A stretch of DNA of 64,000 nt, taken from Patescibacteria group bacterium (GTDB lineage Bacteria > Patescibacteriota > Patescibacteriia > UBA9934). The position numbers were made by a program, and so were the translations under genes. How positions within the stretch are numbered: the first letter of the stretch is position 1; the number at the start of each line of letters is the position of its first letter. This document shows, in pieces, positions 848 through 55,114 of the stretch. The stretch spans positions 40,446-104,445 of the forward strand of contig JBBTSM010000001.1 in the NCBI GenBank assembly GCA_038064675.1, written 5' to 3'. The notes beneath the pieces are model-generated. The model worked only from the letters and a program-made list of their open reading frames with translations. It had not been told where the DNA came from and searched no databases.

Positions 848-890
848 CCCCTCCGTCATTGCGAGGAGGGTAATCCCGACGCGGCAATCT
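848..890 (+). repeat. Short intergenic repeat module (TCCGTCATTGCGAGGAGGGTAATCCCGACGCGGCAATC) beginning 17 nt after a stop codon
   Basis: Near-identical to 2087-2128. Shares the GGGTAATCCCGA(C/T)CGC core with 12609-12630 and 19155-19176. Confidence 0.7.
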
Positions 891-996
891 AGGTTTCTTC
901 AGTCATCCTGAGCGAAGCGAAGGATCTGAGCGTCGATAACCTACGAGAGATGCTTCACTCCGTTCAGCATGACGAAACGGTCTTATCTTCTCCACT

Positions 997-2085: not shown

Positions 2086-2185
2086 TTCCGTCATTGCGAG
2101 GAGGGTAATCCCGACGCGGCAATCCAGATGAGCCTAGATTGCCACGTCGAGCGATTACGCTCTCCTCGCAATGACGGAGGTGAAT
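2086..2185 (+). repeat. Long imperfect inverted repeat (about 40-bp arms, loop CAGATGAGCCTAG) built from the same repeat module; hairpin/MITE-like element that probably also terminates mltG
   Basis: Left arm CCGTCATTGCGAGGAGGGTAATCCCGACGCGGCAATC. Right arm is its near reverse complement, GATTGCCACGTCGAGCGATTACGCTCTCCTCGCAATGACGG. Confidence 0.7.
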
Positions 2186-3984: not shown

Positions 3985-6920
3985 AACAATTAGAATTACA
4001 TAACGCGATTGACGGGTTTTTCAGAAGCGATATCAAGCTAGCTAATCTTCAATTTGCGCAAAGTTTATTGCAGAATGAAGACTCGCGGCGTTATTTTTTC
4101 GACCAAGCCAATGAAGTATGGCTTCAATGGCTTTGGGATTTCGGATTTCTTGACGCGATTAAGGGAGGGGCGAATACCGCACCTAGAGGTGTATATCGGC
4201 TTCCCGAACTCGGCTACCTCGAGAAAATTTGTAAGATAAATCCGGTCGGAGTTTCAAAGATCATTGAATCGGTAGAGATTTCCGAAGACAATTGTAGTCC
4301 GGAAGTATTATTGAGTTTTTTAAGGATTATCGGGACTTTTCCGGTTGAACAAATTGTACCGCTCATCGATAAGATTCTATCGGAACGATGGGTTTATTTA
4401 ATGCGAGATTCAGATAGGTCGAGTTACGATTTTGAAGTGATTGTAAAAGTATTAGTGGAAAAGAAAGAGAGCGTTGGTTTGTTAAAGTTATCTCAAGCCC
4501 TTTTGACTTTAAAGGATGAGGACGATATACGAGCAAAAAACGGAGATTTTGGAAGAGACGATTTTTTCTGCGTCAAAGATATTGATGAGTCGGGTATTTT
4601 TAGTGCGCTTATTACTATTGATGAGCATTATTTAACTGCTGCACTTAAAGTTACTACGGATACCATGGCGGCTATCATTAAGATGTCAGAAGCAGATGAA
4701 GGGGGAGTCTTTGAGTATAAGGATGCATTTGGCTTATATGACGTTGATTTTTTTAATCTAGATTTTGAGGGTGGCCATACGGGCTCATATCGCGCGAATG
4801 AAAAAAACTTTGTTACAACTATAAAGGTTCTTGCCGAGAGTGAGATGAACAAGAAATCTACAGGCGACGAAGATAAGAGGTCTGTTCTTGATCTTATAGA
4901 TAATATTCCTTCGAGTCGTCTGGTGTGGAGATTGCGATTATTTGTGCTAGCGCAGCAACCTCTTTTGTTTAAGAGTGAACTTAAAGATTCGTTCTTTAGG
5001 TTGTTTGAAGGTAAAAATGATTACGATATAGAGGGTGGCGCAGAATACAAGCAAGCTTTAAAAATTTGTTTCCCCCTTTTAGACGAAGATGATCAACGGC
5101 TTTATGTTGCGAATGTCATAAATTATTTTGTAAAAAAAGCGAAAGATAATCCAGAACAGAAATGGCACAAACAAACCGGATATGAAATTCTTTCGACCGT
5201 TTTTGTTGATTTAAATGGAGCGGAGAAACAAAAGGCTGCAGAGGTTTTTGGAAAGGAATTAGATGCGGAATATGTTCCGGAGCCGTCAATCGGTCGAATG
5301 AGGTCCGGTACCGTCATATATCAAGCACCAGATGAATTAGAGAAATATACAATTAAAGAAATCATATCGAGATTAAAAACAAATTGGACGCCAGAAAGAT
5401 TATCTGAAGAGTTCAAGAGTGAAGATTATTTCCGGCCTAGAGGAGCCGAGGGGCTTTGCGAGTCTATAAAACAGGATGTAAAGAAGCGTACTGCTGACTA
5501 TCTCAATAATATTGAACTCTTCTTTGATCGTGAGAATATTCATCCTTCGTATATTCACTCATTGCTGCGCGGTATTGAAGAGATGCTCCGTAACGATCAG
5601 AGTCTTAGCTTTGAGCAAATCGAAAATGTATTTGGATTGTTCGGGCTGATAAAGATAAGTGGGGAGAGGGCGCCTTTTAAGGGTAGTGACGATAAGTCCT
5701 GGCTCGCAGATTGGATTGGGGTTCACAGTGTTGCTGTGGATGTTCTTCTTCACATTCTCAGAGATAAGACATACAGGGGGGAAAAGCATGAGGGTTCCCG
5801 TCCTTGGGTTCTTTCATTCCTTTCTTATCTCTTCACCGTTAATGGCAGCCCCTCAAGGGATGACGAAGGCCCTGAATCTAGTGAGCCGTATTCCGTCGCA
5901 ATCAATTCCGTACGAGGCAGGGCGTATGAGGCATTTGTTGTGTTGGTAGAGAACGACGGAAAGACACTAAGGGAAGATGTGAAGCCTGTATATCGAGCGA
6001 TACTTTGTGACGAATCCCTTGCGGTGAGGTTCGTCATTGGTCGCTATCTAGCCTCGTTTTATTTTCGTGACATTGATTTCGTTCGGGGTCTTTTTGCTGA
6101 AATCTTTCCTAAAGATGACTCAGAGAAAAAGGATATTTATCTCGCAAGTTGGGAGGGCTATCTTTCCAACGTTCTATACCAGAAGCTATTTATTGATCTC
6201 GGAAGCTTCTATGATCATGCGATAGCGCTGAGTCCCTCTGAATATACGAAGAGAAAATACTCAACCGGATTGGATGAGGCTCTAGGCGTGCATCTTGCGC
6301 TTGCATTTATCTACTTCGGGTTGGATATTGAAAATGATCCTTTGCTTGTTAAATTTTGGAGCATCGAGAATCCAAAAAGGCATCAGGAGTTTATATCGTT
6401 TATCGGTCGTACATGTTTGACTCAAGATGGTGCCGGGGACAGGTGGTTTAAAGAGAATAAGGTCGATAAAGAAAGACTGATAGCGTTTTGGAGCTGGGCG
6501 GTGGGGCATGTTACTGAGCCTGAAGCCTTGTCTGGTTTCGGTTTCTGGGTGAATCAGGATCACGAGATTCTGGATGACAGTTTTGTTGCAGAGAAGATGG
6601 CGGAGACACTCAAGAAATCAAATGGTGAAATAGATTGGGACTACGGTCTCTTGAGACGATTGCCGGCGCTTGCTGCAAAAAATAGTGATTCGACATTGGA
6701 GATCATTGAACATCTTCTGTTGGGTAACGATGGTAGGCTTAACCCAAATCGGCGTGTTCCATTCTTTAGTCTCGATGGAGAAATAAGAGAATCTCTTGGT
6801 GTAATTTATGACGGCAGTGATGCTGCAATGAAAGTAAGGGTTTCCGATCTGATTAGCAGACTTATTACAGAAGGTAGCAGCATGTTCTGGGGGTTGAAGG
6901 AGGTGATAAAGGAGGCTTAA
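3981..6920 (+). CDS. Large hypothetical protein (979 aa), predicted mostly alpha-helical, no recognisable catalytic motifs
   Basis: Long uninterrupted ORF with an AGGAG RBS at 3975-3979. Translationally coupled to the upstream gene. AT-rich codon usage unlike the surrounding genes. Confidence 0.6.
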   Translation: MKQLELHNAIDGFFRSDIKLANLQFAQSLLQNEDSRRYFFDQANEVWLQWLWDFGFLDAIKGGANTAPRGVYRLPELGYLEKICKINPVGVSKIIESVEISEDNCSPEVLLSFLRIIGTFPVEQIVPLIDKILSERWVYLMRDSDRSSYDFEVIVKVLVEKKESVGLLKLSQALLTLKDEDDIRAKNGDFGRDDFFCVKDIDESGIFSALITIDEHYLTAALKVTTDTMAAIIKMSEADEGGVFEYKDAFGLYDVDFFNLDFEGGHTGSYRANEKNFVTTIKVLAESEMNKKSTGDEDKRSVLDLIDNIPSSRLVWRLRLFVLAQQPLLFKSELKDSFFRLFEGKNDYDIEGGAEYKQALKICFPLLDEDDQRLYVANVINYFVKKAKDNPEQKWHKQTGYEILSTVFVDLNGAEKQKAAEVFGKELDAEYVPEPSIGRMRSGTVIYQAPDELEKYTIKEIISRLKTNWTPERLSEEFKSEDYFRPRGAEGLCESIKQDVKKRTADYLNNIELFFDRENIHPSYIHSLLRGIEEMLRNDQSLSFEQIENVFGLFGLIKISGERAPFKGSDDKSWLADWIGVHSVAVDVLLHILRDKTYRGEKHEGSRPWVLSFLSYLFTVNGSPSRDDEGPESSEPYSVAINSVRGRAYEAFVVLVENDGKTLREDVKPVYRAILCDESLAVRFVIGRYLASFYFRDIDFVRGLFAEIFPKDDSEKKDIYLASWEGYLSNVLYQKLFIDLGSFYDHAIALSPSEYTKRKYSTGLDEALGVHLALAFIYFGLDIENDPLLVKFWSIENPKRHQEFISFIGRTCLTQDGAGDRWFKENKVDKERLIAFWSWAVGHVTEPEALSGFGFWVNQDHEILDDSFVAEKMAETLKKSNGEIDWDYGLLRRLPALAAKNSDSTLEIIEHLLLGNDGRLNPNRRVPFFSLDGEIRESLGVIYDGSDAAMKVRVSDLISRLITEGSSMFWGLKEVIKEA

Positions 6921-9410: not shown

Positions 9411-9965
9411 ATGCTTCACGCCGAGCATATCCCGTACGTTCTTCGTCGCAAGCGCTTTTCGCGGGTGCTGCGGTTTGCGGTACATGCGGATGGACGGTTG
9501 GTGGTTACAGCACCAGTTCTCATCGGGAAGCGCACCATCGAAAAGATGATTGCGGAGAAGAGGGAATGGATTTTGGAGAAACTCGAGATTGCAAGAAAGA
9601 ACGCGAAGCCGGTGGCGCCGAAGAGGACGAAGAAGGAGATCGCCGATGATAAAGATCGCGCATTGGCGTTGATTCGAGATCGGATCGAGCATTTCAACCT
9701 TGTGTATCGATTATCGTGGAAACGGATTGCAATACGGAATCAGAAGACGAGATGGGGGAGTTGTTCGCGGAAGGGGAATTTGAATTTCAATTATAAGATT
9801 GCATTGTTGCCGCCGCATCTTGCGGACTACATCATCGTTCACGAACTCTGCCACTTGGCGCAGATGAATCATTCGAAAAAGTTTTGGGAACTGGTTGCGC
9901 AGACCATTCCAGATTGGCGAGGTCGGCGAAATGAGATTCGGGAGCACGAGATTCGATTGCGATGA
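9411..9965 (+). CDS. DUF45/YgjP-family (SprT/WLM-like) zinc metallohydrolase
   Basis: HExxH motif IIVHELCHLAQMNHS near the C-terminus. The family is typically about 180 aa. Confidence 0.7.
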   Translation: MLHAEHIPYVLRRKRFSRVLRFAVHADGRLVVTAPVLIGKRTIEKMIAEKREWILEKLEIARKNAKPVAPKRTKKEIADDKDRALALIRDRIEHFNLVYRLSWKRIAIRNQKTRWGSCSRKGNLNFNYKIALLPPHLADYIIVHELCHLAQMNHSKKFWELVAQTIPDWRGRRNEIREHEIRLR

Positions 9966-10228
9966 GTATGCCAACATGGTTCGTATACATGGTGCGCTGT
10001 GGCGATGGGAGTCTCTATACGGGGATCGCTATTGATGTTGTAAAGCGAATCGCGTTGCACAACGCGGGGAAAGGGGCGAAGTACACCAGAGCAAGATTGC
10101 CCGTGGTGCTTGTGTGGAGTGCGGCAATGAAGAGCGCGACCGATGCGCGAAAGGCGGAGGTGGATGTGAAGCGATTGTCGAAGAAAGAAAAAGAACAATT
10201 AATAGGTTTGCACGTGCGCCGTGGCTAA
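9962..10228 (+). CDS. Small GIY-YIG nuclease family protein (YhbQ/COG2827-like)
   Basis: FVYMVRCGDGSLYTGIAIDVVKRIALHNAGKGAKYTR is a canonical GIY-YIG core. Overlaps the upstream gene at ATGA. Confidence 0.75.
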   Translation: MSMPTWFVYMVRCGDGSLYTGIAIDVVKRIALHNAGKGAKYTRARLPVVLVWSAAMKSATDARKAEVDVKRLSKKEKEQLIGLHVRRG

Positions 10229-12401
10229 GGTTCCCGTCCCCGATAATTTCGGATACACTTCCTTCGCTATGAAAGACTTTGTTCTCTCCAACCAGCACGC
10301 CTCGCCGAATCTTCATATTGACTATCAGGCGGAGTTGAATGAGGAGCAGTATCGCGTGGTTTCTGGCGGTGGTGGGCCGATGCTGGTACTTGCGGGTGCG
10401 GGGAGTGGAAAAACGAGAACCATTACCTATCGTGTGGCGTGGTTGCTCGAACACGGTACGCCAGTGGAGAACATGTTGTTGCTCACGTTTACGAACAAAG
10501 CGGCAAAAGAAATGATGGCGCGCGTGGAAGGATTGCTTCGCGCATATCCAACAGGATTGTGGTCTGGAACCTTTCACTCCATCGCAAACCGCATGTTGCG
10601 CATGTACGGCGCGTACACTGGCTTCGGGAGCGATTTTTCCATTTTGGACGAGGAAGATGCGAACGATTTGATGAAGATGTGTATCAAGGAGCTGAAGATC
10701 GACACGAAGGGGCGACGATTCCCGAGTGTTGGAGTGTTGCGCGGACTCTTGTCGTACGCCAACAACGCTCGTCGATCGCTTCAGTCGGTGCTGAACGACC
10801 GCGCAGAACATTTCGCGGGAATTCTTCACGAGGTGACGGCGGTTGCAGAGCGATACGCATCCGCAAAACGCACAGCGAAGGCGATGGACTTTGATGATCT
10901 CTTGCTCGAGCTCCTCAAGCTTCTTCGTGAAAACGAATCCGTTCGCACGCAATTGGCCAATCGTTTTCAATTCGTGCTCGTGGATGAGTTCCAGGACACG
11001 AACATTATTCAGTCCGACATCGTCGATCTTCTTTCGTCCGGCCATCGGAATCTTCTCGTTGTTGGCGACGACGCACAGAGTATTTACTCCTTCCGCGCCG
11101 CAGAAATTAGGAACATTCTTGATTTTCAGAAACGGTATCCGGATGCGCAATCGTATCGATTGGTGATGAATTATCGCTCCACGCCGGAGATTCTTGCGGT
11201 TGCGAACGCTGTCATCTCGAATAACAGCGAGCAGTTCGCGAAAGAACTGGTGTCGGCCAAGTCTTCTGGAGAAAAGCCAAACATTGTTCCGGCGAACGAT
11301 GCACGAGAAGAAGCGCAGTATGTTGTTGAACAGATTTTGAAGCTGATCGATGAGGGAATCGAGCTCCAGGGAATCGCGGTGCTGTTCCGTGCAGCGTTTC
11401 ACTCGCAAGCTCTGGAATTCGAGCTGATGAAGCGGGGGATTGCGTACGAATATCGTGGCGGAATGAAGTTTTTTGAACGCGCCCACATCAAGGATGCCGT
11501 TGCGCATCTTCGGCTGCTTCGAAACGGTCACGACCTTGTTGCATGGGCCAGAGCGCTGCAGATTCAACCTGGTCTTGGCATTACCACAAGCCAGAAGATT
11601 GCGGAAACGATGAGTCAGTACGACTCTGCCCGCGATGCCATTGAGGCGCCGATGAAACTTTCTCCTCGGGTACAGTCTGGATTTGCCGGAACACGATCGA
11701 TTCTCCGCATGATGTTTGCTGCACCGCTGCCGTCGGAGGCTGTGCGCGCATTTGCAAATCACGAATCGTACCGGCTGTATCTTGAAGCCGAATATCCGAA
11801 TGCGCGTGAACGGGTTGAAGACTTGGATCAGCTCGCGGTGTTTGCGGAGCAGTATCGCGATCTTGGTGCATTCTTAGACGCGATGACGTTGGCTGGCGAT
11901 TTCGCGGGAAGGATCGATGATGCGGAATCGGGAGCCCGTGAAGAGTCCGATCGAAACAAACTTATCTTGTCGACGATTCACCAGGCGAAGGGACTGGAGT
12001 GGGATGCGGTGTTCGTACTGCACTGTGCGCAAGGAACGTTCCCGAGTGATCGAAGCATGGGGCAGTCGCGGGAAATCGAAGAAGAGCGACGACTGTTCTA
12101 CGTTGCGGCGACGCGAGCGCGGTCGAAGCTATATTTCACGTATCCAATGACGACCGGGTATGAATCGGTTGAGCTTCGTCAGCAGTCCATGTTTCTTGAT
12201 GAGATTCCGTTCGGCATGGCGGAAACCGTGCGTTTACGTCGCGCAATGCCAGCTTGGAGCATGTCGTCGTCGTACAGTACGCCAACCTCGTCTCGCCATC
12301 GTGCGCACGACGAGTTTGAAGAGCCCACAATCGTTCTCGACGACATGGGGGAGAAAATGGTAAAAAAGAGTGCACCTGGTTCGTTTCTCGGCGATCATTA
12401 A
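10221..12401 (+). CDS. UvrD/PcrA-family SF1 DNA helicase (GTG start at 10221; alternative ATG at 10269)
   Basis: LNEEQYRVV...GPMLVLAGAGSGKT (Walker A), DEFQDT (Walker B) and typical UvrD motifs through VAATRAR. Confidence 0.9.
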   Translation: MAKVPVPDNFGYTSFAMKDFVLSNQHASPNLHIDYQAELNEEQYRVVSGGGGPMLVLAGAGSGKTRTITYRVAWLLEHGTPVENMLLLTFTNKAAKEMMARVEGLLRAYPTGLWSGTFHSIANRMLRMYGAYTGFGSDFSILDEEDANDLMKMCIKELKIDTKGRRFPSVGVLRGLLSYANNARRSLQSVLNDRAEHFAGILHEVTAVAERYASAKRTAKAMDFDDLLLELLKLLRENESVRTQLANRFQFVLVDEFQDTNIIQSDIVDLLSSGHRNLLVVGDDAQSIYSFRAAEIRNILDFQKRYPDAQSYRLVMNYRSTPEILAVANAVISNNSEQFAKELVSAKSSGEKPNIVPANDAREEAQYVVEQILKLIDEGIELQGIAVLFRAAFHSQALEFELMKRGIAYEYRGGMKFFERAHIKDAVAHLRLLRNGHDLVAWARALQIQPGLGITTSQKIAETMSQYDSARDAIEAPMKLSPRVQSGFAGTRSILRMMFAAPLPSEAVRAFANHESYRLYLEAEYPNARERVEDLDQLAVFAEQYRDLGAFLDAMTLAGDFAGRIDDAESGAREESDRNKLILSTIHQAKGLEWDAVFVLHCAQGTFPSDRSMGQSREIEEERRLFYVAATRARSKLYFTYPMTTGYESVELRQQSMFLDEIPFGMAETVRLRRAMPAWSMSSSYSTPTSSRHRAHDEFEEPTIVLDDMGEKMVKKSAPGSFLGDH

Positions 12402-12402
12402 T

Positions 12403-12659
12403 TTTTCCGTCATCCCCGCGTAGGCGGGGATCCAGTATCATTGCAAGCTGGTGGCTCGGATATACATTCTTTTGCACTCCGCGCGAATCCCCGACGCTGC
12501 AACGTCTCGTTTGCACTCGACTGCAGCTGAGGGGCGCGTGCTCGTTGGAAGAATGTATCCTCTCCACTGGCGCTCGCGATGTCAGTCTCACTCGCCCAAT
12601 TTGCTCAAGGGTAATCCCGATCGCCCAAGCGCAGCGATCGCTCATCTTTCCTCTCCACT
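12403..12659 (+). repeat. Modular intergenic repeat of about 257 bp, copy A: TTCCGTCAT + palindrome ATCCCCGCGTAGGCGGGGAT + conserved body + GGGTAATCCCGATCGCCC tail. It fills the whole uvrD / malic-enzyme spacer
   Basis: High identity along its full length to 18932-19202 and partly to 24052-24195. Confidence 0.85.
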
Positions 12660-13808
12660 ATGTCCAATCACGACTACGCACAGCGTTCGATGGATGCGCA
12701 TAAGCTTCATGCCGGGAAATGGGCTATTACAAGCGTGATGCCGCTCGAAACTGCGGACGATTTGAGTATTGCGTACACGCCTGGAGTTGCTGCGCCGTGT
12801 TTGGCAATTGCGGCGGATCCGTTGGCTGCATATGATTTGACGATGAAAGGGCGCGCTGTTGCTGTTGTATCCGACGGATCGTCCGTGCTCGGGCTTGGCA
12901 ACATTGGCCCGATGGCGGGATTGCCAGTAATGGAAGGGAAAGCGGTATTGTATAAAAAGTACGCAAACATTGATGCGGTGCCGATCGTCCTTGCAAGTCA
13001 GAATGCGGACGAAATTATCGAGGCCGTGCGCATGATTGCACCAACATTTGGTGGAATTCATTTGGAAGACATTGCCGCACCGGCATGTTTCGAAATTGAA
13101 CAGCGGTTGAGCGAGATGCTCGACATCCCAGTCATGCACGACGATCAGCACGCAACAGCAATCGTTGCGCTTGCGGGGTTGATGAACGCGGCGAAAGTTG
13201 TTGGTCGATCGTTGGAATCCATGAACGTTGTGGTGAACGGTGCCGGTGCCGCGGGAATCGCTATCACATATCTGTTTATCGATGCCGGGGTTGCCAATGT
13301 GATTCTCGTCGATTCTAAGGGCGTTATTGGTCATCATCGATCTGACCTTTCGGGCCAGAAAGCGATCCTCGTTGCATTAACAAACACATATGGAGTGCAG
13401 GGCGGGCTCGCAGAAGCAATGCAGGGAACAGACGTGTTTGTTGGCGTAAGCAAGCCGAATCTTGTCTCGCAAGACATGGTGAAGTCTATGGCGCCAAATC
13501 CAATCATCTTCGCGCTCGCAAATCCGGTTCCAGAAATTGCGTACGACGACGCGAAGGCTGCCGGTGCTGCTGTCATCGCCACCGGGCGTAGTGATTATCC
13601 AAATCAAATCAACAATGTCCTTGTGTATCCAGGATTGTTCCGCGGATTGCTCAATCGCCGAGCAAGTAAGCTGACGAGTGTCATGAAAATTGCTGCCGCA
13701 ACGGCGTTGGCGGGTATGGTTCCAGAACCAACGGCAGAGAATATCATTCCAAGGATTATTGAGACGAATCCAGCGGAGGCAATTGCGAAAGCCATCGAAA
13801 GCGTATGA
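12660..13808 (+). CDS. NAD(P)-dependent malic enzyme (short, prokaryotic type)
   Basis: Malic enzyme motifs DDQHATAIV and VVNGAGAAGIA (Rossmann). Confidence 0.9.
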   Translation: MSNHDYAQRSMDAHKLHAGKWAITSVMPLETADDLSIAYTPGVAAPCLAIAADPLAAYDLTMKGRAVAVVSDGSSVLGLGNIGPMAGLPVMEGKAVLYKKYANIDAVPIVLASQNADEIIEAVRMIAPTFGGIHLEDIAAPACFEIEQRLSEMLDIPVMHDDQHATAIVALAGLMNAAKVVGRSLESMNVVVNGAGAAGIAITYLFIDAGVANVILVDSKGVIGHHRSDLSGQKAILVALTNTYGVQGGLAEAMQGTDVFVGVSKPNLVSQDMVKSMAPNPIIFALANPVPEIAYDDAKAAGAAVIATGRSDYPNQINNVLVYPGLFRGLLNRRASKLTSVMKIAAATALAGMVPEPTAENIIPRIIETNPAEAIAKAIESV

Positions 13809-14341
13809 GACAGCAAAGCTTCAGGCATCGTGGTGCGAAAAGCTCCGGAATCGGGGGAAGTATTTTGCTGATTATCGCAGCAGTGGTTGGAGTATTTGTG
13901 GTGTATCAACTTATTCTGTGGTTCCGTTCGAGTAGTGCAAAGACGATCGCGAACGATGTGGTTACCGCGGCGGTTGATACGGTTGATGCAAAAGCATCTT
14001 TGACGACGTCACTTAACAGTACTGCAGTGCTGAAGGTATCCGATGGGTCGTCGGCTGGAACTGTTGTGCGTTCGGGAACGGTAGAGGTGCCGTCGTACAG
14101 TCTTGTAGCGAATCTTGTTGCCCTTGCTCCAGATACGATGTACGAGGCATGGCTTGTGAAGGATGGCCTTGCCGACGTGAAGAGTGTTGGAGCGTTGAAC
14201 CCACGTGCGGACGGAAGTTGGGCCGCAACATTTAGCGCGAAAGATCCGTTGGACTATCCAACGATCGTCATCATGCTCGAGCCGAATGATGGGGATGCTG
14301 AGCCATCGGGGAACCGTATTGCTGAAGGAAGATTTGAATAA
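13805..14341 (+). CDS. Single-pass membrane protein with an extracytoplasmic anti-sigma-K factor RskA-like C-terminal domain
   Basis: N-terminal TM helix. YEAWLVKDG...G.LNPRADGSWAATF pattern resembles the RskA C-terminal domain. No sigma factor gene is adjacent. Confidence 0.4.
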   Translation: MRQQSFRHRGAKSSGIGGSILLIIAAVVGVFVVYQLILWFRSSSAKTIANDVVTAAVDTVDAKASLTTSLNSTAVLKVSDGSSAGTVVRSGTVEVPSYSLVANLVALAPDTMYEAWLVKDGLADVKSVGALNPRADGSWAATFSAKDPLDYPTIVIMLEPNDGDAEPSGNRIAEGRFE

Positions 14342-14350
14342 TTACTGCCT

Positions 14351-15559
14351 ATGACTATCGGTGTTCTGGGGGCTGGATACGTGGGGCTGGCAACAGCAGC
14401 GAGTTTTGCAGCGCGTGGCTTTGCGGTGGTGTGCGCCGACATCGACGAGAAGAAGATCGCGAAACTTCAGATTGGCGAGCTTCCATTTTTTGAGGAGGGA
14501 ATGGGCGACGTGTTCGCGACGGCATCGACTCCCGTGACTTTTACTACCAATCTCGAGAGCGCGTGTCTGTGCGATATAGTCTTTTGCTGCGTGGGAACGC
14601 CGAGCGCAGCTGACGGATCGGCGGATCTTTCGTTTGTGCGATCGGTCGCAAAAACCTGCGCCGACATCGCGCCAAATGCAGTATTTGTTCTGAAGTCGAC
14701 GGTTCCTCCGGGAACGTCGAGGTCGATTTCAGAATTTGTAGACGGAAAACTGCGTATTGCGGCAAATCCAGAATTTTTACGCGAAGGAAACGCAGTGCAA
14801 GACGCGCTGAATCCAACACGAGTGGTCATTGGGGCTGATGACGAATCGGTTTCATTGATTCTTGCCGATCTGTACAAGGATGTTGGTGCACCAATTGTTT
14901 CCACAAACACGGTGACTGCCGAGATGATTAAGTACGCGTCGAATAGCTTCCTCGCGACGAAGATCAGTTTTATTAACGACATCGCGAACCTCTGCGATGT
15001 GATTGGTGCCGATGTGCAATCTGTTGCAACAGGCATGGGGCTCGACGATCGTATCGGTGCAAAGTTTTTGCAGCCTGGGCCTGGATACGGCGGGAGTTGT
15101 TTTCCTAAAGATGTGCGAGCACTGATGCATCTTGGACAATCGGTGAAGGTGCCACTGCGTATCCTTGAAGCAACAACTGCGATTAATGCGGATCGTCAGC
15201 GATTGCCGTACCGTCAGCTTGTCGAGCATCTTGTGGATTTGAAAGGAAAGCGTATCGCTGTGTGGGGGCTTGCGTTTAAGCCGGGTACCGATGATGTCCG
15301 CGACGCTCCTGCACTCGGATTGTTGCGCCGGTGTATGGCGGACGAGGCAGACCTCGTTGCTTTTGATCCATTGGTTCGATCGCTCCCATCAGAATTCGGT
15401 GAAGTCGAGATGGCATCAAGCGCAGCTGATTCGCTCCGTGGAGCTGATGCAGTGGTGATTATGACCGATTGGCCCGAATTTTCCGCCGTTGAGCGTGTCG
15501 AGATTCTGAAAACTCTGCGAGGGGACTGTGTAATCGACCCACGATACGTTCTTCGATGA
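14351..15559 (+). CDS. ugd: UDP-glucose 6-dehydrogenase
   Basis: IGVLGAGYVGL Rossmann motif. Catalytic GGSCFPKD motif. Confidence 0.9.
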   Translation: MTIGVLGAGYVGLATAASFAARGFAVVCADIDEKKIAKLQIGELPFFEEGMGDVFATASTPVTFTTNLESACLCDIVFCCVGTPSAADGSADLSFVRSVAKTCADIAPNAVFVLKSTVPPGTSRSISEFVDGKLRIAANPEFLREGNAVQDALNPTRVVIGADDESVSLILADLYKDVGAPIVSTNTVTAEMIKYASNSFLATKISFINDIANLCDVIGADVQSVATGMGLDDRIGAKFLQPGPGYGGSCFPKDVRALMHLGQSVKVPLRILEATTAINADRQRLPYRQLVEHLVDLKGKRIAVWGLAFKPGTDDVRDAPALGLLRRCMADEADLVAFDPLVRSLPSEFGEVEMASSAADSLRGADAVVIMTDWPEFSAVERVEILKTLRGDCVIDPRYVLR

Positions 15560-15565
15560 GGTATA

Positions 15566-16318
15566 ATGAGGTCGTCTATGGCGCTGCTTCGTAGGTCCTC
15601 TTCAAAATCCTCGGGAGACAAATGTCGTTTTCCATTAAGCGATCAAGAACGCGCCCAAAGCGAGCAGAGCGGGCTTGTTCCTCATGCATCAGAAATTACC
15701 TGGCGCGTGTTTCGGATCATGGCAGAAATTGTTGAAGGGTTTCAGCTGCTCACGCGAACTACGCGTGAGGTTTCCGTATTTGGCTCGTCGCGATGTGCGC
15801 CGTCGAGCCATTGGTACAAAGAGTCGTATGCACTCGGAGTATTGTTGGGAAAGAATGGTTTCACTGTTGTGACTGGCGGAGGCCCAGGCATCATGGAGGC
15901 GGCGAATAAGGGCGCTTTTGAAAACGGGGCGCAATCGGTAGGCTTGAATATTGAGCTTTCTCATGAGCAACGACTGAATCCGTACGTTACGCTTTCGCAC
16001 GGCTTTCATTACTTCTTTACGCGAAAAGTGATGCTTGTGGCGGCGGCGCAGGCGTATGTTGTGTTCCCTGGAGGTTTTGGAACATTGGATGAGCTTTTTG
16101 AGCTGTTAACATTGGTCCAAACGGGGAAATCGAGCAAAATGCCCATTGTGCTCGTGGGAAAGGATCATTGGGCGCCGCTGATTGCTTGGCTCGAGAGTAG
16201 CGTGTACGGTACGCAGGACGCTATTGATCCGGGCGACTTGCGCCTATTTACTGTGGTAGACTCCGCAAACGAAGCATTCGATATTGTTTCCAAATCCCCA
16301 GAGCGCCACCTATTCTAG
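15566..16318 (+). CDS. LOG-family protein (TIGR00730; cytokinin riboside 5'-monophosphate phosphoribohydrolase-like / lysine decarboxylase-like)
   Basis: GGGPGIMEAANKGA and PGGFGTLDELFE motifs. Long-type N-terminal extension WRVFRIMAEIVEGFQLL. Confidence 0.8.
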   Translation: MRSSMALLRRSSSKSSGDKCRFPLSDQERAQSEQSGLVPHASEITWRVFRIMAEIVEGFQLLTRTTREVSVFGSSRCAPSSHWYKESYALGVLLGKNGFTVVTGGGPGIMEAANKGAFENGAQSVGLNIELSHEQRLNPYVTLSHGFHYFFTRKVMLVAAAQAYVVFPGGFGTLDELFELLTLVQTGKSSKMPIVLVGKDHWAPLIAWLESSVYGTQDAIDPGDLRLFTVVDSANEAFDIVSKSPERHLF

Positions 16319-16324
16319 ACGATT

Positions 16325-17899
16325 ATGTACGAACGATTAGCGAAACTTGCGTCCGGTTTGAAGCATCGCGAAAGCGTTGTTGCTGCGGCAAATGGTGAAG
16401 AGACTATCGAGGTGAGCGTTCCTGCGTCTACCGCGGCATCCATTTACGAGAAAGTTCGCAATACACTCGATTATCAAGAGGAACATCTGCTTCGTCGTAA
16501 TGCTATTGAACGCATTCTTCGACGATACCGCGGGGGAGGGGAATCACCAGATCGTATGGCGAGTGAGTTGTTGAAGGAGCTTGTTTGGGCGAAGTACTTG
16601 CCGAACAAGACTATTCCATTATCGCTCGGGAACACGATCGCGATTATTTTGGGAAAGTACGAACCGTTGTTTGCGGCGGTTATGGCGGTAAAGGCGAATC
16701 GTGAGCGTTTAAATAATTGGCTTCTGGATGTTGTTGCAACAGAGGTGGAATACACCCTCGCGCCACCGATGGCCGACGAGGCAATGGCGAGTTTTATGTA
16801 TGAGGAGATGCGCTCGCGTATTGATTGGGATCCAAAATTTGGATTGAGCGACGAGACGAAGGATTTGCGATTGTATACCGCGATTCACCGCACGCTTTTA
16901 AAGAGTAATGCCGCGACGCTGCGATTCCGATTGCTCACGCTCTATTACCCAACATGGGCTGGCGCGCAAGCAACATCGGCGTTGAGCGACGAGCTTGCGG
17001 CGAACATCGTTCGTGTTATTGAAACGATCGAAACAGAAATTTTCCATCCACTTACGGATCGATTGTCTCGTGTGCTTCGTCGAAAGGCGGGGATTTTCCG
17101 CGTATTGCGTGATGCGTTTATTCACGCAAAGGATTCGTCGAAATTACTCAACGACGCGGGCGCACTCGATGACGCGGTGAAAGAATCGCTCCATCATCGT
17201 ACGGATGATTTCCGAATTCGTTTGCGCCGAACTGTTGTTCGAACGGTGCTCTTCTTGTTTATCACCAAGATGTTGCTCGCATTGGTGCTTGAAGTGCCTT
17301 ACGATTTGTTTATTGTGCAGGACGCATCGTGGTATCCGTTGTTGGTGAACATTACGTTCCATCCGCTTTTTCTTGCGTTGATCGGTTTGACAGTGACGAT
17401 CCCGGAGAAGAAGAACGTAGAAGACTACCAGGCTGCTGTTCGGGCCATCGCGGTTGGCGCGCAGCACCAGCTCCTCACGGTTCGGGTGAAGCGCGAAACG
17501 CGCGGTGCGTGGTTCAATGTCTTCTTGGTGCTGTACGCCCTGCTCTTTATTGTGGTGTTTGGCGTTATCGCGTCTATTCTTCGTGGATTCGGTTTTCATG
17601 CGTTATCGATCGGGCTTTTCGTGTTCTTCCTTTCTTTAGTCACGTTCTTCGGAATTCGTATTCGATCGTCCACCAAGGATGTGGTGGCTTCGGATGCACG
17701 AAACGGATTCATCGGCACCGCATTCGATATTGTGCTCTTGCCGATTGTTCGCGCTGGAGCATGGCTCTCGATTCGCGTGGCGAAGATTAACGTGTTCATC
17801 TATTTCTTCGACTTCATTGTGGAGGCTCCTCTGAAGGTTGCGATTGAGTTCGTCGAGAGCTGGCTGACGTTTGTGAGGGAAAAAAAGGAAGAGATTTAA
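16325..17899 (+). CDS. Hypothetical polytopic membrane protein (524 aa)
   Basis: Soluble N-terminal half followed by several TM helices. No recognisable motifs. Confidence 0.5.
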   Translation: MYERLAKLASGLKHRESVVAAANGEETIEVSVPASTAASIYEKVRNTLDYQEEHLLRRNAIERILRRYRGGGESPDRMASELLKELVWAKYLPNKTIPLSLGNTIAIILGKYEPLFAAVMAVKANRERLNNWLLDVVATEVEYTLAPPMADEAMASFMYEEMRSRIDWDPKFGLSDETKDLRLYTAIHRTLLKSNAATLRFRLLTLYYPTWAGAQATSALSDELAANIVRVIETIETEIFHPLTDRLSRVLRRKAGIFRVLRDAFIHAKDSSKLLNDAGALDDAVKESLHHRTDDFRIRLRRTVVRTVLFLFITKMLLALVLEVPYDLFIVQDASWYPLLVNITFHPLFLALIGLTVTIPEKKNVEDYQAAVRAIAVGAQHQLLTVRVKRETRGAWFNVFLVLYALLFIVVFGVIASILRGFGFHALSIGLFVFFLSLVTFFGIRIRSSTKDVVASDARNGFIGTAFDIVLLPIVRAGAWLSIRVAKINVFIYFFDFIVEAPLKVAIEFVESWLTFVREKKEEI

Positions 17900-17915
17900 G
17901 TGGTAGAATACAGGC

Positions 17916-18926
17916 ATGAACGAACGAAGGCATCGCGTGCGGGGGTTGCGCGAAGCTGTGGCATTTGCTGCGGTGTGTTTGGTGACGTTTGTGGCAATGA
18001 CGTGTATCGGTGTTGTTATTCTTTTTCGTCCTGGCGCAGACAAGCTTGGTGTGACGTTCTCGAGTTCGTATTCACAGGATTTGGATTTGGATCCCGAGGA
18101 GGTTTTTACGGCGCTCGTGAGCGACCTTGGTGCGAAACGTGTTCGCATTCCAGTGTATTGGAGCGATCAGGAAACTGCTCCCGGAGTGTACGATTTTTCT
18201 GCGCTGGATTCGTTGATGCGGATTGCTGATGCGCATGGGACAGAAGTGACGCTCGCTATTGGCATGAAGGTTCCACGGTGGCCGGAGTGTTACTTGCCAC
18301 TATTTGTGAACGGTATGAACGATGAGGAACTCAATGCAGCGGTGTATCGGTATGATCAGGCGTTGATTAGTTATGCAAAGACGTATCCTGCGTTGGCGCG
18401 TTGGCAGGTGGAAAATGAGCCATTGTTCCCATATGGCAATTGTCCAAGGCCGTCGCTTGAACGTCTCACACGCGAGGTTTCTTTAGTTCGTGCGCTCGAT
18501 ACCGCACATCCCGTTATGCTGACTGTGAGCGGCGAACAAGAGCCATGGCTTGATGTATCCAGCATCGCAGACACGATTGGGGTAAGTATGTATCGGTTTG
18601 CGTACAACGACGTGCTTGGCGCTGTCGCGTTTCCGTACGGCCCGCTGTACTACCGTGTTCACGCCATCATTACCAAGTTTTTCGCGAAGGATGTGATTAT
18701 TTCTGAGCTGCAAATGGAGCCGTGGTTTACCGACGATCCACAAAAGCCGGAATCGATGGTTGTTCCGTTTACCGTCGACGATTTCGTTGATCACATGGAT
18801 TTTGTGAAACGAACGGGAATCCACGAAGTGTTGCTTTGGGGTGCGGAGTGGTGGTATTACCAGAAGGTTCATGGTGATCCTTCGCTCTGGAATATTGCAA
18901 AACAGACGTTCTCTGAGTCGAAATAA
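17916..18926 (+). CDS. Membrane-anchored glycoside hydrolase, GH5/clan GH-A-like
   Basis: N-terminal TM helix. Acid/base motif VENEP. Nucleophile motif IISELQ (ITE-like). Confidence 0.6.
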   Translation: MNERRHRVRGLREAVAFAAVCLVTFVAMTCIGVVILFRPGADKLGVTFSSSYSQDLDLDPEEVFTALVSDLGAKRVRIPVYWSDQETAPGVYDFSALDSLMRIADAHGTEVTLAIGMKVPRWPECYLPLFVNGMNDEELNAAVYRYDQALISYAKTYPALARWQVENEPLFPYGNCPRPSLERLTREVSLVRALDTAHPVMLTVSGEQEPWLDVSSIADTIGVSMYRFAYNDVLGAVAFPYGPLYYRVHAIITKFFAKDVIISELQMEPWFTDDPQKPESMVVPFTVDDFVDHMDFVKRTGIHEVLLWGAEWWYYQKVHGDPSLWNIAKQTFSESK

Positions 18927-18931
18927 TATTC

Positions 18932-19202
18932 TTCCGTCATCACTTTTCCTTAGTCATCCCCGCGCAGGCGGGGATCCAGAATTCATCGCGAGCTGGTGGC
19001 TCGGGTACATGTTTCTTCACTGTGCGTGAACGCCATCACGCCGTAACGTCTCGCTTGCGCTCGACTACTGCTGGATGGGTGCACTGCTCGTCGCGAAACA
19101 CGCACCCTCGCCACTGGCGATCGCGATATTCATCTCACTCGCTCAATTCGCTCAAGGGTAATCCCGATCGCCCGCGCGTAGCGCTCGCTCATCCATCTTT
19201 CT
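18932..19202 (+). repeat. Modular intergenic repeat of about 270 bp, copy B (TTCCGTCAT ... GTCATCCCCGCGCAGGCGGGGATCCAG ... GGGTAATCCCGATCGCCC); fills the GH5 / trmH spacer
   Basis: Aligns with 12403-12659 along its length. Begins 6 nt after a stop and ends at the next start codon. Confidence 0.85.
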
Positions 19203-21057: not shown

Positions 21058-21089
21058 AAACTCTGAATTTTGCCTAGAATGCTCGCACT

Positions 21090-23087: not shown

Positions 23088-23091
23088 TCCT

Positions 23092-23994: not shown

Positions 23995-24051
23995 AAATTC
24001 CTCAGAATCAAAGCGAGCTCGAAAGGGCTCGTTTTGATTTGGTAACCTTTA

Positions 24052-24195
24052 CATCGCGAGCTGGTGGCTCGGATACATTCTTCTGCACTCCGCGCGAATC
24101 CCCTACGCTGCGACGTCTCGCTGATGCTCGACTGCAGCTGTGGGGCGGCGTGCTCGTTGGAAGAATGTATCCTCACCACTGGCGTTCGCGATGAC
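24052..24195 (+). repeat. Modular intergenic repeat, partial copy C (central body only); downstream of secF
   Basis: CATCGCGAGCTGGTGGCTCGGATACATTCTT...GTGCTCGTTGGAAGAATGTATCCTC.CCACTGGCG.TCGCGATG is collinear with 12436-12590. Confidence 0.8.
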
Positions 24196-24374
24196 TCGGT
24201 TCGACTTGGAGCGGCGTGCTATAATTCAACGGACAGGACTTCCTTATTTGAGGCTAGTTTCGATGAACGAGGAGCAAAGATCGCGAGGCGTACTTCACGG
24301 TACGTTGAGCGATTTTGCGACGAAGTGAGTCGAAAATAGACCAAATGAGGAAGTGCTAAAGGACTTTATCGCCT

Positions 24375-37744: not shown

Positions 37745-37756
37745 TCCGTGACAAAG

Positions 37757-37920
37757 CCCTCCCCTTACGAAGGCGCTCGACGAGCTGAAGCGGGTGAGGA
37801 GAGTGAGTTAGGAGGGGTCTGATCGTGAAGTGACCTTGGATGGATGTGATGAGAACGGCAGGAGTGACGCATTATCGGCGACGCTCGTCGAGCCTGAGTT
37901 GGGCGAGGAGGGTGAGGGGT
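37757..37920 (+). repeat. Two intergenic copies of the CCCTCCCCTTACGAAGG / CGCTCG(A/T)CGAGC CTGAGTTGGGCGAGGAG repeat unit also found inside the PBP gene
   Basis: 37757-37820 and 37878-37920 match 36204-36266. Confidence 0.8.
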
Positions 37921-54538: not shown

Positions 54539-55114
54539 ATGACGGACGAAGAATTGAAAGACGAAGAGGGCAAAGGGCAGGGGGCAGAGGAATCCGTCAT
54601 CCCAAATGACTCTGGTCATCCCCGCGCAGGCGGGGATCCATCATCGGACCTCGAAGCTCTCCAGCAGAAATGCGCCGAATACCTTCACGGCTGGAAGCGT
54701 GCCCTCGCAGACTACGAAAATCTGCAAAAGCAAAACTCCAGCGCTCGTGACGACGACCGCCGACGCGTTCGATCGAATTTGGCGGAGGATCTGCTCCCCG
54801 TCGTCGACAACTTCGGCTACGTCACCAAGCACGTCCCCGACATCACCGCTTGTCCCGACGACTTTAAGAAAAAGTTCGACACCTGGTTCCAAGGCATCGG
54901 CCACATCGAACGCCAATTCGCGGAAGCGATGAAGAACATGGGAGTTGAGGCGATCCCAAGTGTCGGAACCATCTTCGACCCAAACCTCCACGAAAGTGGT
55001 GGCTCACGATCGGAGCCTGGAAAGAAAGAACACGAGATCATCGAGGAACTCATCAAAGGCTGGAAGATCGGTGACGTCGTGTTGCGACCTGCAAAAGTAA
55101 TCGTTAATGAATAA
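54539..55114 (+). CDS. grpE: Nucleotide exchange factor GrpE (N-terminal region contains a palindromic repeat unit in frame)
   Basis: Coiled-coil plus a C-terminal beta domain. Lies upstream of dnaK. Confidence 0.85.

Follow-up and report, generated by a model that had tools for sequence, protein, structure and literature searches.

The stretch of about 260 bp that recurs between genes of this genome is best explained, with a probability of roughly 70%, as a set of mobile DNA repeats that are non-autonomous, form hairpins and are combined into a NIME/BIME-like mosaic, in a groundwater lineage of Uhrbacteria-like Patescibacteria. The window, by which we mean the whole 64-kb stretch of DNA that was analysed, carries two full copies, each built from a short tagged hairpin (module A), a long hairpin (module B) and a tail (module C), and in addition isolated modules and related hairpins (Table 1). 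Altogether, about 84 kb of the source genome and about 200 kb of related genomes were examined.

Table 1. Repeat modules and tagged hairpins in the window (CM R1, score against covariance model R1)
Feature	Position	Strand	Characteristics
852-892 unit, single copy	852..892	+	long-loop CGTCAT-tagged hairpin TCCGTCATTGCGAGGAGGGTAATCCCGACGCGGCAATCTAG; 98% identical to 2087-2127
AGTCAT-tagged hairpin	901..930	+	AGTCATCCTGAGCGAAGCGAAGGATCTGAG; from sequence and fold
CGTCAT-tagged hairpin	945..974	-	CGTCATGCTGAACGGAGTGAAGCATCTCTC; from fold
Head-to-head doublet of the 852-892 unit	2087..2178	.	arms of ~44 nt; fold z = -10.1
Module A, copy 1	12405..12435	+	CGTCAT-tagged hairpin with 8-bp stem, 4-nt loop and CCAG tail; SRM/NTS-like, CGTC-1 REP type
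Module B, copy 1 (type 1)	12436..12585	+	147-nt rod-like imperfect hairpin; CM R1 149 bits
Module C, copy 1	12586..12646	+	tail with GGGTAATCCCGATCGCCC, 7-bp CGATCGC/GCGATCG stem and GCTCATC end
Module A, copy 2	18932..18979	+	solo TTCCGTCATC tag, 12-nt spacer, AGTCAT-tagged hairpin
Module B, copy 2 (type 2)	18981..19132	+	CM R1 142.5 bits; arms differ from type 1 mainly through compensatory changes
Module C, copy 2	19133..19193	+	from alignment and repeat family
Module B, copy 3 (type 1), without A or C	24049..24197	+	CM R1 165.5 bits
Module A in GrpE	54593..54640	+	tag, spacer and hairpin in frame; N-terminal tail, residues 19-34

The repeat family is real. As the original prediction stated, the two full copies (12403-12659 and 18932-19202) are collinear with each other and with a partial copy, which was found to span 24049-24197; the full copies share 79% identity over 252 aligned nt, and 24052-24195 matches 12439-12581 with 88.9% identity over 144 nt. 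Both full copies indeed occupy the entire spacer from stop to start codon (258 and 276 nt), while the usual spacer length in the source genome is below 30 nt. The sequence TTCCGTCAT is found at 12405, 3 nt past the TAA at 12399-12401, and at 18932, 5 nt past the TAA at 18924-18926. The rule that an element always begins with it shortly past a stop codon holds for four of five window sites, but not for the third copy, which has neither palindrome nor tail and starts 57 nt past the SecF stop codon, between the SecF intrinsic terminator (∼24011-24040) and a TGCTATAAT promoter (24216-24224). As DNA, the B module of this copy folds with -41.9 kcal/mol (z = -6.8). Among the shorter elements, the hairpin proposed at 2086-2185 was borne out and spans 2087-2178, with arms of about 44 nt and -63.6 kcal/mol (z = -10), whereas the single short element placed near 848-890 was only partly correct, since a tagged hairpin is present there but 832-996 comprises three of them; window positions 936-977 are 88% identical to L002 3636-3677. 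The motif TCCGTCAT occurs 12 times in the window compared to 3.4 expected occurrences. Nor is the family restricted to a few window copies: module B is also present in loci L001, L002, L013/L034, L024 and L057-L059, with two copies each in L057 and L058. A pattern scan of metagenome contigs yielded 38 loci. Genuine copies were confined to L013/L034 and L024; the remaining 35 loci, of high GC content, hit the two outer-stem words by chance and share nothing with B in between. None of the nine loci from a scan of viral contigs was real, and covariance model R1 detected no further B copies in the window plus 20-kb flanks and none in L060-L062.

The elements are insertions into gene junctions that were once nearly gap-free, because the orthologous sites are empty in syntenic relatives. 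At site 1, between the genes for UvrD and malic enzyme, the 258 nt of the window compare to 13, 13, 8 and 12 nt in L058, L059, L061 and L062, respectively, and at site 2, between a GH42-like gene and SpoU, the 276 nt of the window compare to 5 and 4 nt in L061 and L062. The empty site 1 of L058 reads TAA GCTCCTCTCCACT ATG, and the ancestral spacer CCTCTCCACT is retained in the window at 12650-12659, after module C of copy 1. Other repeat families are found at the same sites in L060. The flanking genes are housekeeping genes, whose order is strictly conserved in seven genomes, and the spacers alone vary. Entire spacers are found in one syntenic genome and missing from another, and the elements at a given junction are exchanged, shortened, nested or inverted from genome to genome. 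Site 2, for example, has orthologous B copies in L057, L058 and L059; the window has type 2 there and L057 type 1, and the B copy of L058 is truncated at its 5' end. At site 3, B in plus orientation is followed by an inverted A' in L058, L057 contains an inverted A'+B, and L059 a complex inverted nest of 420 nt with inverted fragments. When the borders of B and of the entire composite were searched for target-site duplications, only ambiguous T-rich or TTTCC-like matches emerged. A seeming in-frame insertion in DnaX (580 aa in L054, 548 aa in the window) is an assembly gap, visible as a run of X.

Module B represents a new repeat with strong covariation and an unusual degree of conservation. 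Its arms (CATCGCRAGCTGGTGGCTCGG ... CCACTGGCGNTYGCGATG) form a rod of 147 nt, and the pairing is maintained through compensatory changes: across 11 copies from 8 loci, 94.1% of the cells of 51 pairs are paired and 25 of these pairs changed on both sides. None of 500 shuffles attained this pairing, and slid controls were paired to 32-47%. Between genomes B is 75-93% identical, while third codon positions are identical to only 45-58%. Rfam 15 at the gathering score found one tRNA and matched no module, and at E values up to 5 the sole match inside any element was a chance miRNA on 2099-2164. Phage and plasmid records gave no matches other than to module A, and a full-text literature search returned no papers on the peptides that such repeats would encode (e.g., RLRGND and PAFAGMT).

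Such conservation could also be expected if B, alone or together with A and C, were a selected cis-acting RNA element in polycistronic mRNAs, e.g., a long double-stranded RNase III processing site or a 3'-end stabiliser or insulator that separates operon segments, which was copied to several junctions as it is useful. The highly conserved and covarying pairing, the identity of B between lineages in which synonymous sites are saturated, and the near-invariance of an unpaired GCTCGTTG motif all support this idea. Wherever a copy lies in a co-directional gene string, it has the sense orientation (sites 1 and 2 of the window; site 2 of L057, L058 and L059; L013; L024), and sites 1 and 2 must be transcribed through, as the spacers of the relatives measure 4-13 nt. 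Co-transcription of copies 1 and 2 is very probable, because the same junctions belong to a gap-free co-directional gene string in relatives; promoter and terminator scans predicted nothing inside these two copies. No observation supported the roles as terminator, RNA-stability element or sRNA that the original prediction suggested. On the sense strand 43 G.U cells were counted compared to 20 A.C cells. However, 18 of the 43 derive from two invariant pairs, and without these fixed wobble pairs the strand bias is gone (25 versus 20), so that the excess is too weak to choose between selection on RNA and on DNA. Compensatory change in palindromic DNA may equally arise if a hairpin is selected as DNA or if one arm corrects the other. 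Moreover, B has no constant neighbour gene (malic enzyme, SpoU, DUF8128, YbaB and others), the same junctions are empty in close relatives without visible consequence, and copies have persisted in truncated form at site 2 of L058, nested at site 3 of L059 and inverted at site 3 of L057, while one copy lies outside an operon behind a terminator. We therefore consider a selected RNA element unlikely as the explanation of the family, although it is compatible with a mosaic of mobile repeats and does not exclude it.

The imperfect dyad of ∼125-147 nt just past stop codons, in gene orientation, is also reminiscent of the VCR/attC repeats of Vibrio, which have the same position and orientation. That B is an integron attC-like recombination site at gene-cassette boundaries is nevertheless highly improbable in view of the strictly conserved order of the flanking housekeeping genes, the ends CATCGCRAGC...GCTYGCGATG, which on inspection do not fit RYYYAAC/GTTRRRY core sites, and the lack of any integrase seen in the loci.

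Module A (CGTCATCCCCGCGYAGGCGGGGATCCAG; RNA fold of copy 1 -16.1 kcal/mol, z = -4.1) can be assigned by its sequence to the SRM/NTS-type hairpins, i.e., to the CGTC-tagged REPs. NTS/SRM is the hairpin cut by Ssn proteins, which are GIY-YIG single-strand DNA nucleases that act on the tagged strand only (Chenal et al. 2025, PMC11893778). It shares with module A the directional layout of CGTCAT tag, GC-rich 8-bp stem, short loop and ATCCAG tail, and the sequences are nearly identical. The published SRM search sequence, HGTCWYN(0-2)YYVSBRHN(0-5)WNVSBRGN(0-2)RNCYNB, is matched at 12408-12435 and 18952-18979, i.e., twice in the window compared to a shuffle average of 0.26, and also by the A copies of L013, L024 and L057; the GrpE copy misses it at the first base only. 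Both window copies match the NTS consensus CGTCATTCCCGCGMAVGCGGGAATCYRG at 25 of 28 positions, with 0 such matches expected, and two of the three mismatches form a compensating change from a T-A to a C-G stem pair. Repeats on an Azospirillum megaplasmid are 94-97% identical to module A. Set against the description of CGTC-1 REPs (Di Nocera, De Gregorio and Rocco 2013, PMC3733652), module A reads CGTC-AT CCCCGC GYAG GCGGGG AT-CCAG and thus has their tag, AT-starting 8-bp stem, 4-nt loop and CCA tail. Like the repeats here, CGTC-1 REPs form head-to-head dimers that fold into larger hairpins, reside downstream of coding regions between unidirectional ORFs and are sometimes intragenic. The intragenic copy encodes residues of GrpE directly in front of the Pfam GrpE domain, which begins at residue 35. 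The situation differs in several respects from the systems of PMC11893778: the host belongs to the CPR/Patescibacteria, a group that is unmentioned there, canonical SRMs are few (2 per 64 kb instead of hundreds), and A is joined to the 147-nt hairpin B.

The palindrome of module A had been likened to a type I-E CRISPR repeat, as the stem TCCCCGCGC...GCGGGGAT resembles the E. coli I-E repeat. A degenerate or orphan CRISPR repeat, with the elements as array remnants, is very hard to reconcile with solitary copies at 12409, 18953 and 54615 (6.5 kb and 35 kb apart) instead of a tandem array, with the directional tag and tail and the consensus match of an NTS/SRM hairpin, or with the in-frame copy in GrpE, so that the palindrome is not CRISPR-related. 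An assembly artefact, i.e., collapsed or chimeric contigs, which the original prediction had named as a caveat, is refuted. Short-read contigs do break at these repeats, and the Logan contig L065 stops within copies 1 and 2, in the way that true repeats would cause. The independent NCBI MAG contig L064, however, is 100% identical over window positions 13939-25559 and reproduces copies 2 and 3 exactly. In addition, three further species-level genomes, obtained from other samples, have orthologous B copies at these junctions, and B is also found in two GTDB species representatives from lakes.

A candidate for an enzyme acting on tagged hairpins is encoded on the same contig, about 5 kb upstream of the window. 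This Ssn-like gene (L050 4628-4921, 97 aa), at the iPGM|HhH-GPD junction, lies between two inverted TCCGTCAT repeats (4585-4634; 4909-4962), and the 852-892 unit flanks the Ssn-like gene in both L050 and L067. The protein has Pfam GIY-YIG as its sole domain, and its residues Y9/Y20/E67 are spaced as Y6/Y17/E64 of SsnA; in NCBIfam it gave a weak match below the cutoff, and in the PDB only UPF0213 relatives were found. Its family comprises at least 7,986 single-domain members of about 95 aa, and a 75%-identical homologue shows the same repeat-ORF-repeat layout in a different gene neighbourhood. Ssn nucleases are single-domain GIY-YIG proteins of ∼94 aa (cd10448) whose genes typically have the motif on both sides, and the layout NTS-ssnA-NTS applies to 42% of the homologues (PMC11893778). 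Unlike the canonical SRM, the repeats that bound the gene here have a long loop with a nested stem, and due to this loop the 852-892 unit fails the published search sequence. A cognate pairing of the L050 protein with module A is assumed. A second GIY-YIG gene (window 9962-10228) was discarded as a candidate, since it is syntenic, UPF0213-like and without flanking repeats.

The doublet at 2087-2178 can be aligned to the two ends of L050 4585-4962, and the ATGA/GCCTAG in its centre corresponds to the start (ATGA...) and the end (...GCCTAG) of the ORF in the L050 unit. It is an internal-deletion, MITE-like derivative of this repeat-ssn-repeat unit, which shares the terminal inverted repeats of the longer coding element and retains traces of where the ORF began and ended; a target duplication was not seen at this site. 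The survey of CGTC REPs, which did not include CPR genomes, concluded that there is no dedicated transposase (PMC3733652), whereas here a repeat-bounded GIY-YIG gene and a deletion derivative reside on the same contig. This derivative supports the IS-like idea that the authors of PMC11893778 had put forward as a hypothesis.

Module C is weakly structured (z = -1.3) and its core resembles the 852-892 unit. In copy 1, GGGTAATCCCGATCGCCC is located at 12609-12626, and the region is 83% identical to 19095-19193. The modules occur apart and in varied combinations. A stands by itself within GrpE, as do B at 24049, in L001 and in L002, and a C-like module at L050 5708-5751; A+B is found in L024 and L013, and A+B+C twice in the window. 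This confirms a modular mosaic intergenic family of the BOX/BIME/Correia kind. Since the palindrome matches NTS/SRM and the CGTC-1 REP, NIMEs (neisserial intergenic mosaic elements) are a closer analogue than BOX or Correia elements and offer the nearest known architecture. They consist of dRS3/NTS hairpins and 50-150 bp RS units, usually in arrays (Bentley et al. 2007, PMC1797815). Both systems are intergenic mosaics that combine a dRS3/NTS-type hairpin with a unit of about 150 bp from several families, and both occupy syntenic positions with variable content and length between genomes. The order A-B-C would correspond to a hairpin, the 147-nt unit and a decayed hairpin, and site 3 of L058 shows B followed by an inverted A'. 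In contrast to NIMEs, the elements here are single A-B-C units and not arrays, and B also stands alone. While RS units are flanked by dRS3, only one intact tagged hairpin is present per unit in the window copies, and the tail resembles a decayed second one. RS units were described as possibly inert spacers (PMC1797815), whereas B is a long covarying hairpin, and NIMEs adjoin surface-antigen genes, whereas the elements here lie between housekeeping genes within operons. E. coli BIMEs are also similar in architecture.

For the mosaic of mobile hairpin repeats we propose the following course. The repeats would have colonised gene junctions that were originally almost gap-free, and spread and turnover may proceed via hairpins of single-stranded DNA, formed at replication forks or when DNA is taken up, and by recombination or gene conversion among the copies. 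By analogy, the most likely enzyme to act on module A and on the 852-892 unit is an Ssn-type nuclease. It would bind the tagged hairpin and nick a few nt upstream, as was shown for Neisseria SsnA (PMC11893778). The weakest step concerns B, and that it travels as cargo beside A or is mobilised likewise is rather doubtful. The arms of B pair end to end, and empty sites and turnover are present; neither a parent element nor a duplication turned up. The ends of B (TCATCGCGAGCTGG) are alike to those of the 852-892 unit (TCATTGCGAGGAGG) at 11 of 14 positions, which is a lead only. Copies 1 and 2 would be co-transcribed as long RNA hairpins, which must permit read-through in that orientation, and any effect on RNA processing or stability would be a by-product. 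Several observations count against the mobile mosaic: no transposase or Ssn gene was found beside any B copy, no full-length parent with B arms was seen, the search for target-site duplications yielded no clean one, and the repeats around the Ssn-like gene fail the SRM sequence. The conservation of B across saturated lineages, the sense orientation at all within-operon sites and the G.U excess fit a selected RNA element, too.

Other families of hairpin repeats offer partial parallels. In the REP/BIME and REPIN systems, short tagged hairpins and doublets are long kept beside a single-copy, hairpin-recognising single-strand DNA enzyme, the IS200/IS605-like Y1 protein RAYT, and likewise form intergenic mosaic clusters. 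Their tag, however, is GT(A/G)G, while CGTC(AT) and a candidate GIY-YIG nuclease are found here, and no Y1_Tnp domain or Y1 transposase is among the precomputed Pfam matches of the fetched loci (∼200 kb). ERIC, Correia (CREE) and RUP-type MITEs resemble B and the 2087-2178 doublet as imperfect palindromes of 90-150 nt in transcribed intergenic DNA, whose presence varies between relatives and which fold into long RNA hairpins. They differ in that here sequence similarity to them, a TA or other target duplication and a DDE-type parent are lacking, and B is far more conserved between species than the surrounding neutral sites.

An extension of this scheme is more tentative still. The tagged hairpins, the 2087-2178 doublet and perhaps the A-B composite might be non-autonomous partners of an IS-like element with an Ssn-type GIY-YIG nuclease as its only protein, B being structured cargo under selection and the insertions now serving as built-in RNA hairpin punctuation inside operons. 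If true, this would constitute a system for single-strand transposition or repeat seeding that is guided by hairpins and separate from IS200/IS605-RAYT.

Such repeats have practical consequences, as they cause CPR assemblies to break and may be mistaken for small ORFs or for CRISPR-like repeats. A literature search for CPR together with MITE or palindromic repeats found nothing relevant. CPR/Patescibacteria genomes are usually called small, compact and poor in mobile DNA, and yet most of the longer intergenic spacers examined in the 64-kb stretch are insertions of several families of hairpin repeats, dated as such because the junctions of syntenic relatives measure only 4-13 nt. Hairpins of the TCCGTCAT type are thereby linked to the Ssn nucleases, whose characterisation is recent, in a phylum for which these had not been discussed previously. 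With 2087-2178 there is a concrete case of a hairpin doublet as a deletion derivative of a repeat-ssn-repeat unit, which bears on an open question, as it was stated that "CGTC REPs lack a dedicated transposase" (PMC3733652) and that the layout is "identical to IS architecture" (PMC11893778). Finally, module B is a good test case for telling apart whether a hairpin is selected as DNA or as RNA.

The repeat that occupies the three spacers is a NIME/BIME-like intergenic mosaic of three modules (see table). Module A is by its sequence a known Ssn-related, CGTC-tagged hairpin, module B is a long, strongly covarying hairpin that constitutes a new repeat, and module C is a tail partly resembling a decayed tagged hairpin. 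This identity is sharper than that of the original prediction, whose modular intergenic repeat family is borne out by modules found separately and in several combinations. The start of C is homologous to a short extension 3' of B in three compared loci (L002, L013 and L057), so the composite is conserved partly as a unit. Copies 1 and 2 share 79% identity over 252 aligned nt, and copy 3 is 88.9% identical to the middle of copy 1 across 144 nt; the copies are thus genuine and collinear, and an assembly artefact is excluded as their source. In this genome the majority of spacers are <30 nt and nearly all genes are co-oriented. Copies 1 and 2 wholly take up their stop-to-start spacers, as had been noted; copy 3 sits between a terminator and a promoter. 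The 149.6-kb contig carrying the window was sampled from Hainich groundwater well H41, the window proteins carry the label Patescibacteria, and just two repeat matches were found in the genome collection, both in Candidatus Uhrbacteria MAGs.

Features of the repeat modules, related elements and syntenic spacers (window coordinates unless a locus handle is given; L050 is the contig of the window with its upstream flank, L057-L062 are syntenic loci, other handles are compared loci)
Feature	Position, or spacer length at sites 1; 2; 3	Composition
Copy 1	12403-12659	Site 1, UvrD/malic enzyme
Copy 2	18932-19202	Site 2, GH42-like/SpoU
Copy 3	24052-24195	Site 3, SecF/DUF8128
Module A		TTCCGTCATCCCCGCGYAGGCGGGGATCCAG; unpaired tag, 8-bp GC stem, 4-nt loop, CCAG tail
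Module B	12436-12585, 18981-19132, 24049-24197	147-nt imperfect palindrome; folds as a single long rod as RNA or DNA
Module C		Tail with GGGTAATCCCGATCGCCC, GCTCATC at end; little predicted structure
A by itself	54593-54640	In GrpE, in frame
B by itself	24049-24197; L001, L002	
C-like by itself	L050 5708-5751	
A+B	L024, L013/L034	
A+B+C	Two occurrences in window	
Window	258; 276; 380 nt	A+B+C; A+B+C with B type 2; terminator + sense B
L057	250; 250; 280 nt	A + different long hairpin; B type 1, A loop holding another nested palindrome; A'+B inverted
L058	13; 163; 295 nt	TAA GCTCCTCTCCACT ATG; 5'-truncated B; sense B then inverted A'
L059	13; 214; 420 nt	Site 2 B type 2 without A; site 3 inverted nest
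L060	142; 180; 220 nt	Unrelated hairpin MITE; unrelated hairpin MITE; other palindrome family
L061	8; 5; 56 nt	
L062	12; 4 nt	Site 3 outside locus sequence
Ssn-like ORF	L050 4628-4921	97 aa
Repeat-ORF-repeat unit	L050 4585-4962	Inverted TCCGTCAT-type repeats
Homologous unit	L067 2955-3400	Third repeat
Deletion derivative	2087-2178	Hairpin
Tagged hairpin cluster	832-996 (165 nt)	852-892 (+), 901-930 (+), 945-974 (-)
Second GIY-YIG gene	9962-10228	88 aa, UPF0213-like
Hairpin MITE	24234-24357	~125 nt, ends AGGACTT...AAGTCCT
In-frame palindromes	TGT 20405-20444; DnaX 61208-61247	..LPLTKGELEGV..; ..LPLTKGESEGV..
Largest non-coding gap	37745-38294	550 nt
Pre-start sequences	12647-12662, 19190-19205, 985-999	CCTCTCCACT ATG or CATCTTTCT ATG
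SecF; TGT (longest ORF)	22954-23994; 19825-21057	346 aa; 410 aa

The Neisseria hairpin NTS (CGTCATTCCCGCGMAVGCGGGAATCYRG) is bound by SsnA, a 94-aa single-domain GIY-YIG protein, only as ssDNA and only on the tagged strand, with a cut a few nt upstream, and ssn genes commonly carry the motif on both flanks (Chenal et al. 2025, PMC11893778). Both A copies of the window match the degenerate search sequence for Ssn-related motifs (SRM) defined in that study (2 vs 0.26 in shuffles), and they differ from the NTS by three mismatches, two of them a compensating stem pair. Such hairpins were named CGTC-tagged REPs (Di Nocera et al. 2013, PMC3733652), and the description of the CGTC-1 family, an 8-bp stem starting with AT, a 4-nt loop and a CCA tail, fits module A exactly. 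According to the same survey, CGTC REPs form head-to-head dimers, lie downstream of genes with some copies within genes, have no known dedicated transposase and occur in Azospirillum lipoferum, among other hosts (PMC3733652). Azospirillum megaplasmids carry repeats with 94-97% identity to the initial 33 nt of the element. Since A fits all three, its likeness to a CRISPR I-E palindrome, which had been remarked on earlier, is coincidental. A further hairpin of the SRM type, preceded by a solo tag, is read in frame as residues 19-34 of GrpE, in its N-terminal tail and directly ahead of the Pfam GrpE domain.

Some 5 kb before the window begins, an ORF (MNDRQYYIYILTN...) encodes a protein with GIY-YIG as its sole domain and with tyrosine and glutamate spacing as in SsnA Y6/Y17/E64; its family is very large, comprising ~95-aa GIY-YIG proteins spread across phyla. 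The ORF is bounded by inverted TCCGTCTTTGCGAGGAGGGTAATCCCGACGAAGCAATCTAG copies, equal to the 852-892 unit of the window, a long-loop CGTCAT-tagged hairpin; the start codon follows one copy and the stop codon lies inside the other. Owing to their long loop, these bounding repeats are not matched by the published SRM search sequence. The whole unit is nested in a CCCCC-type palindrome, and TCCGTCAT occurs 12 times in the window vs 3.4 expected. In L067, a homologue with 75% identity is surrounded by other genes but is bounded by repeats in the same way. Hairpin 2087-2178 aligns with both ends of the unit, and its centre, ATGA/GCCTAG, equals the first four and last six bases of the ORF, which identifies it as a MITE-like deletion derivative. 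Three tagged hairpins are clustered in spacer 832-996 as a small array of the BIME/NIME kind, and the right part of this spacer is 88% identical to L002 3636-3677. In the window and in all relatives, another small GIY-YIG gene comes after the YgjP-like gene; as a candidate Ssn-like gene it was rejected, since it lacks flanking repeats and is syntenic throughout, and it is a distinct resident gene.

For module B, a MAFFT/RNAalifold consensus of seven copies contains 51 pairs, 16 of them with compensatory changes. When 11 copies were aligned on the covariance model R1, 94.1% of cells were paired and 25 of the 51 pairs showed changes on both sides, which none of 500 shuffles matched, while sliding the partners reduced pairing to 32-47%. 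Fitting to R1 favours structure, but the independent seven-copy consensus agrees. The two sub-types of B are set apart mostly by paired substitutions, e.g. GGATACATTCTTC/GAAGAATGTATCC vs GGGTACATGTTTC/GAAACATGCACCC. No Rfam family matches the element.

Six syntenic loci, reached via Ugd protein homologues, share with the window the gene order UvrD, malic enzyme, RskA-like, Ugd, LOG, 524-aa protein, GH42-like, SpoU, TGT, SecD, SecF and DUF8128. The short or empty junctions in these relatives indicate that the ancestral gene string was nearly gap-free; the elements are insertions, and the same few permissive junctions were colonised independently by several repeat families, with content still changing. 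The separate hairpin MITE (RNA fold z = -9.5) is inserted downstream of the TGCTATAAT promoter and ahead of DUF8128, where L057, L058 and L059 are without it, and has copies in L001, L024 (two), L050, L051, L057 and L060 (three, including sites 1 and 2). Palindromes of the CCCCCTTACGAAGGGGGAG type occur in frame in TGT and DnaX; 10-14 palindrome-encoded residues are missing from TGT of L057, L058 and L060, and L062 has a longer version, so another family of repeats has inserted in frame here, in the manner of the Rickettsia palindromic elements. Every relative has a SecF of 300 aa, and TGT is 391-401 aa long in most of them; the longest-ORF starts overcall both genes in the window, and the true starts probably lie downstream. 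The largest non-coding gap of the window is 70-72% similar to L024 10271-10522 and L059 5126-5315, has short repeats in common with 36204-36263 and L062, had no match in Rfam, and could be an undescribed RNA or additional repeats.

Downstream of SecF, a predicted intrinsic terminator (GAGCTCGAAAGGGCTCGTTTTGATTT) and the predicted TGCTATAAT promoter are kept in all relatives, with copy 3 placed between them. Sites 1 and 2 leave no room for transcription signals when empty, and none were predicted in the filled sites of the window, so that read-through of copies 1 and 2 in sense orientation is almost certain. Ahead of the start codons that follow the elements lies pyrimidine-rich sequence with no Shine-Dalgarno motif; this sequence also occurs at the empty L058 site and hence belongs to the gene, not to the repeat. 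Within co-directional gene strings B is always in sense, and inverted B occurs only at the terminator-promoter gap. This bias fits selection against antisense in mRNA, and a strand-specific ssDNA mechanism fits just as well, because genes and replication are co-directed here; GC skew is >0 along nearly the entire window. Sense-strand wobbles in B (G.U 43 vs A.C 20, or 25 vs 20 minus two invariant wobble pairs) do not tell an RNA from a DNA hairpin, and a selected RNA role of B appears unlikely.

Module A and the 852-892 unit would most likely be mobile through ssDNA hairpins with involvement of an Ssn-type nuclease; extending such mobility to B is only a hypothesis. At the third codon positions of four flanking genes, the window shares only 45-58% identity with L057-L059, which is essentially saturation, whereas the B copies of L057-L059 and the two lake MAGs are 75-93% identical to window B. 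This conservation reflects either strong constraint on sequence and structure, acting on the element or on the host, or exchange of copies. Either reading fits long-lived repeats whose population depends on enzyme recognition, as described for REPINs.
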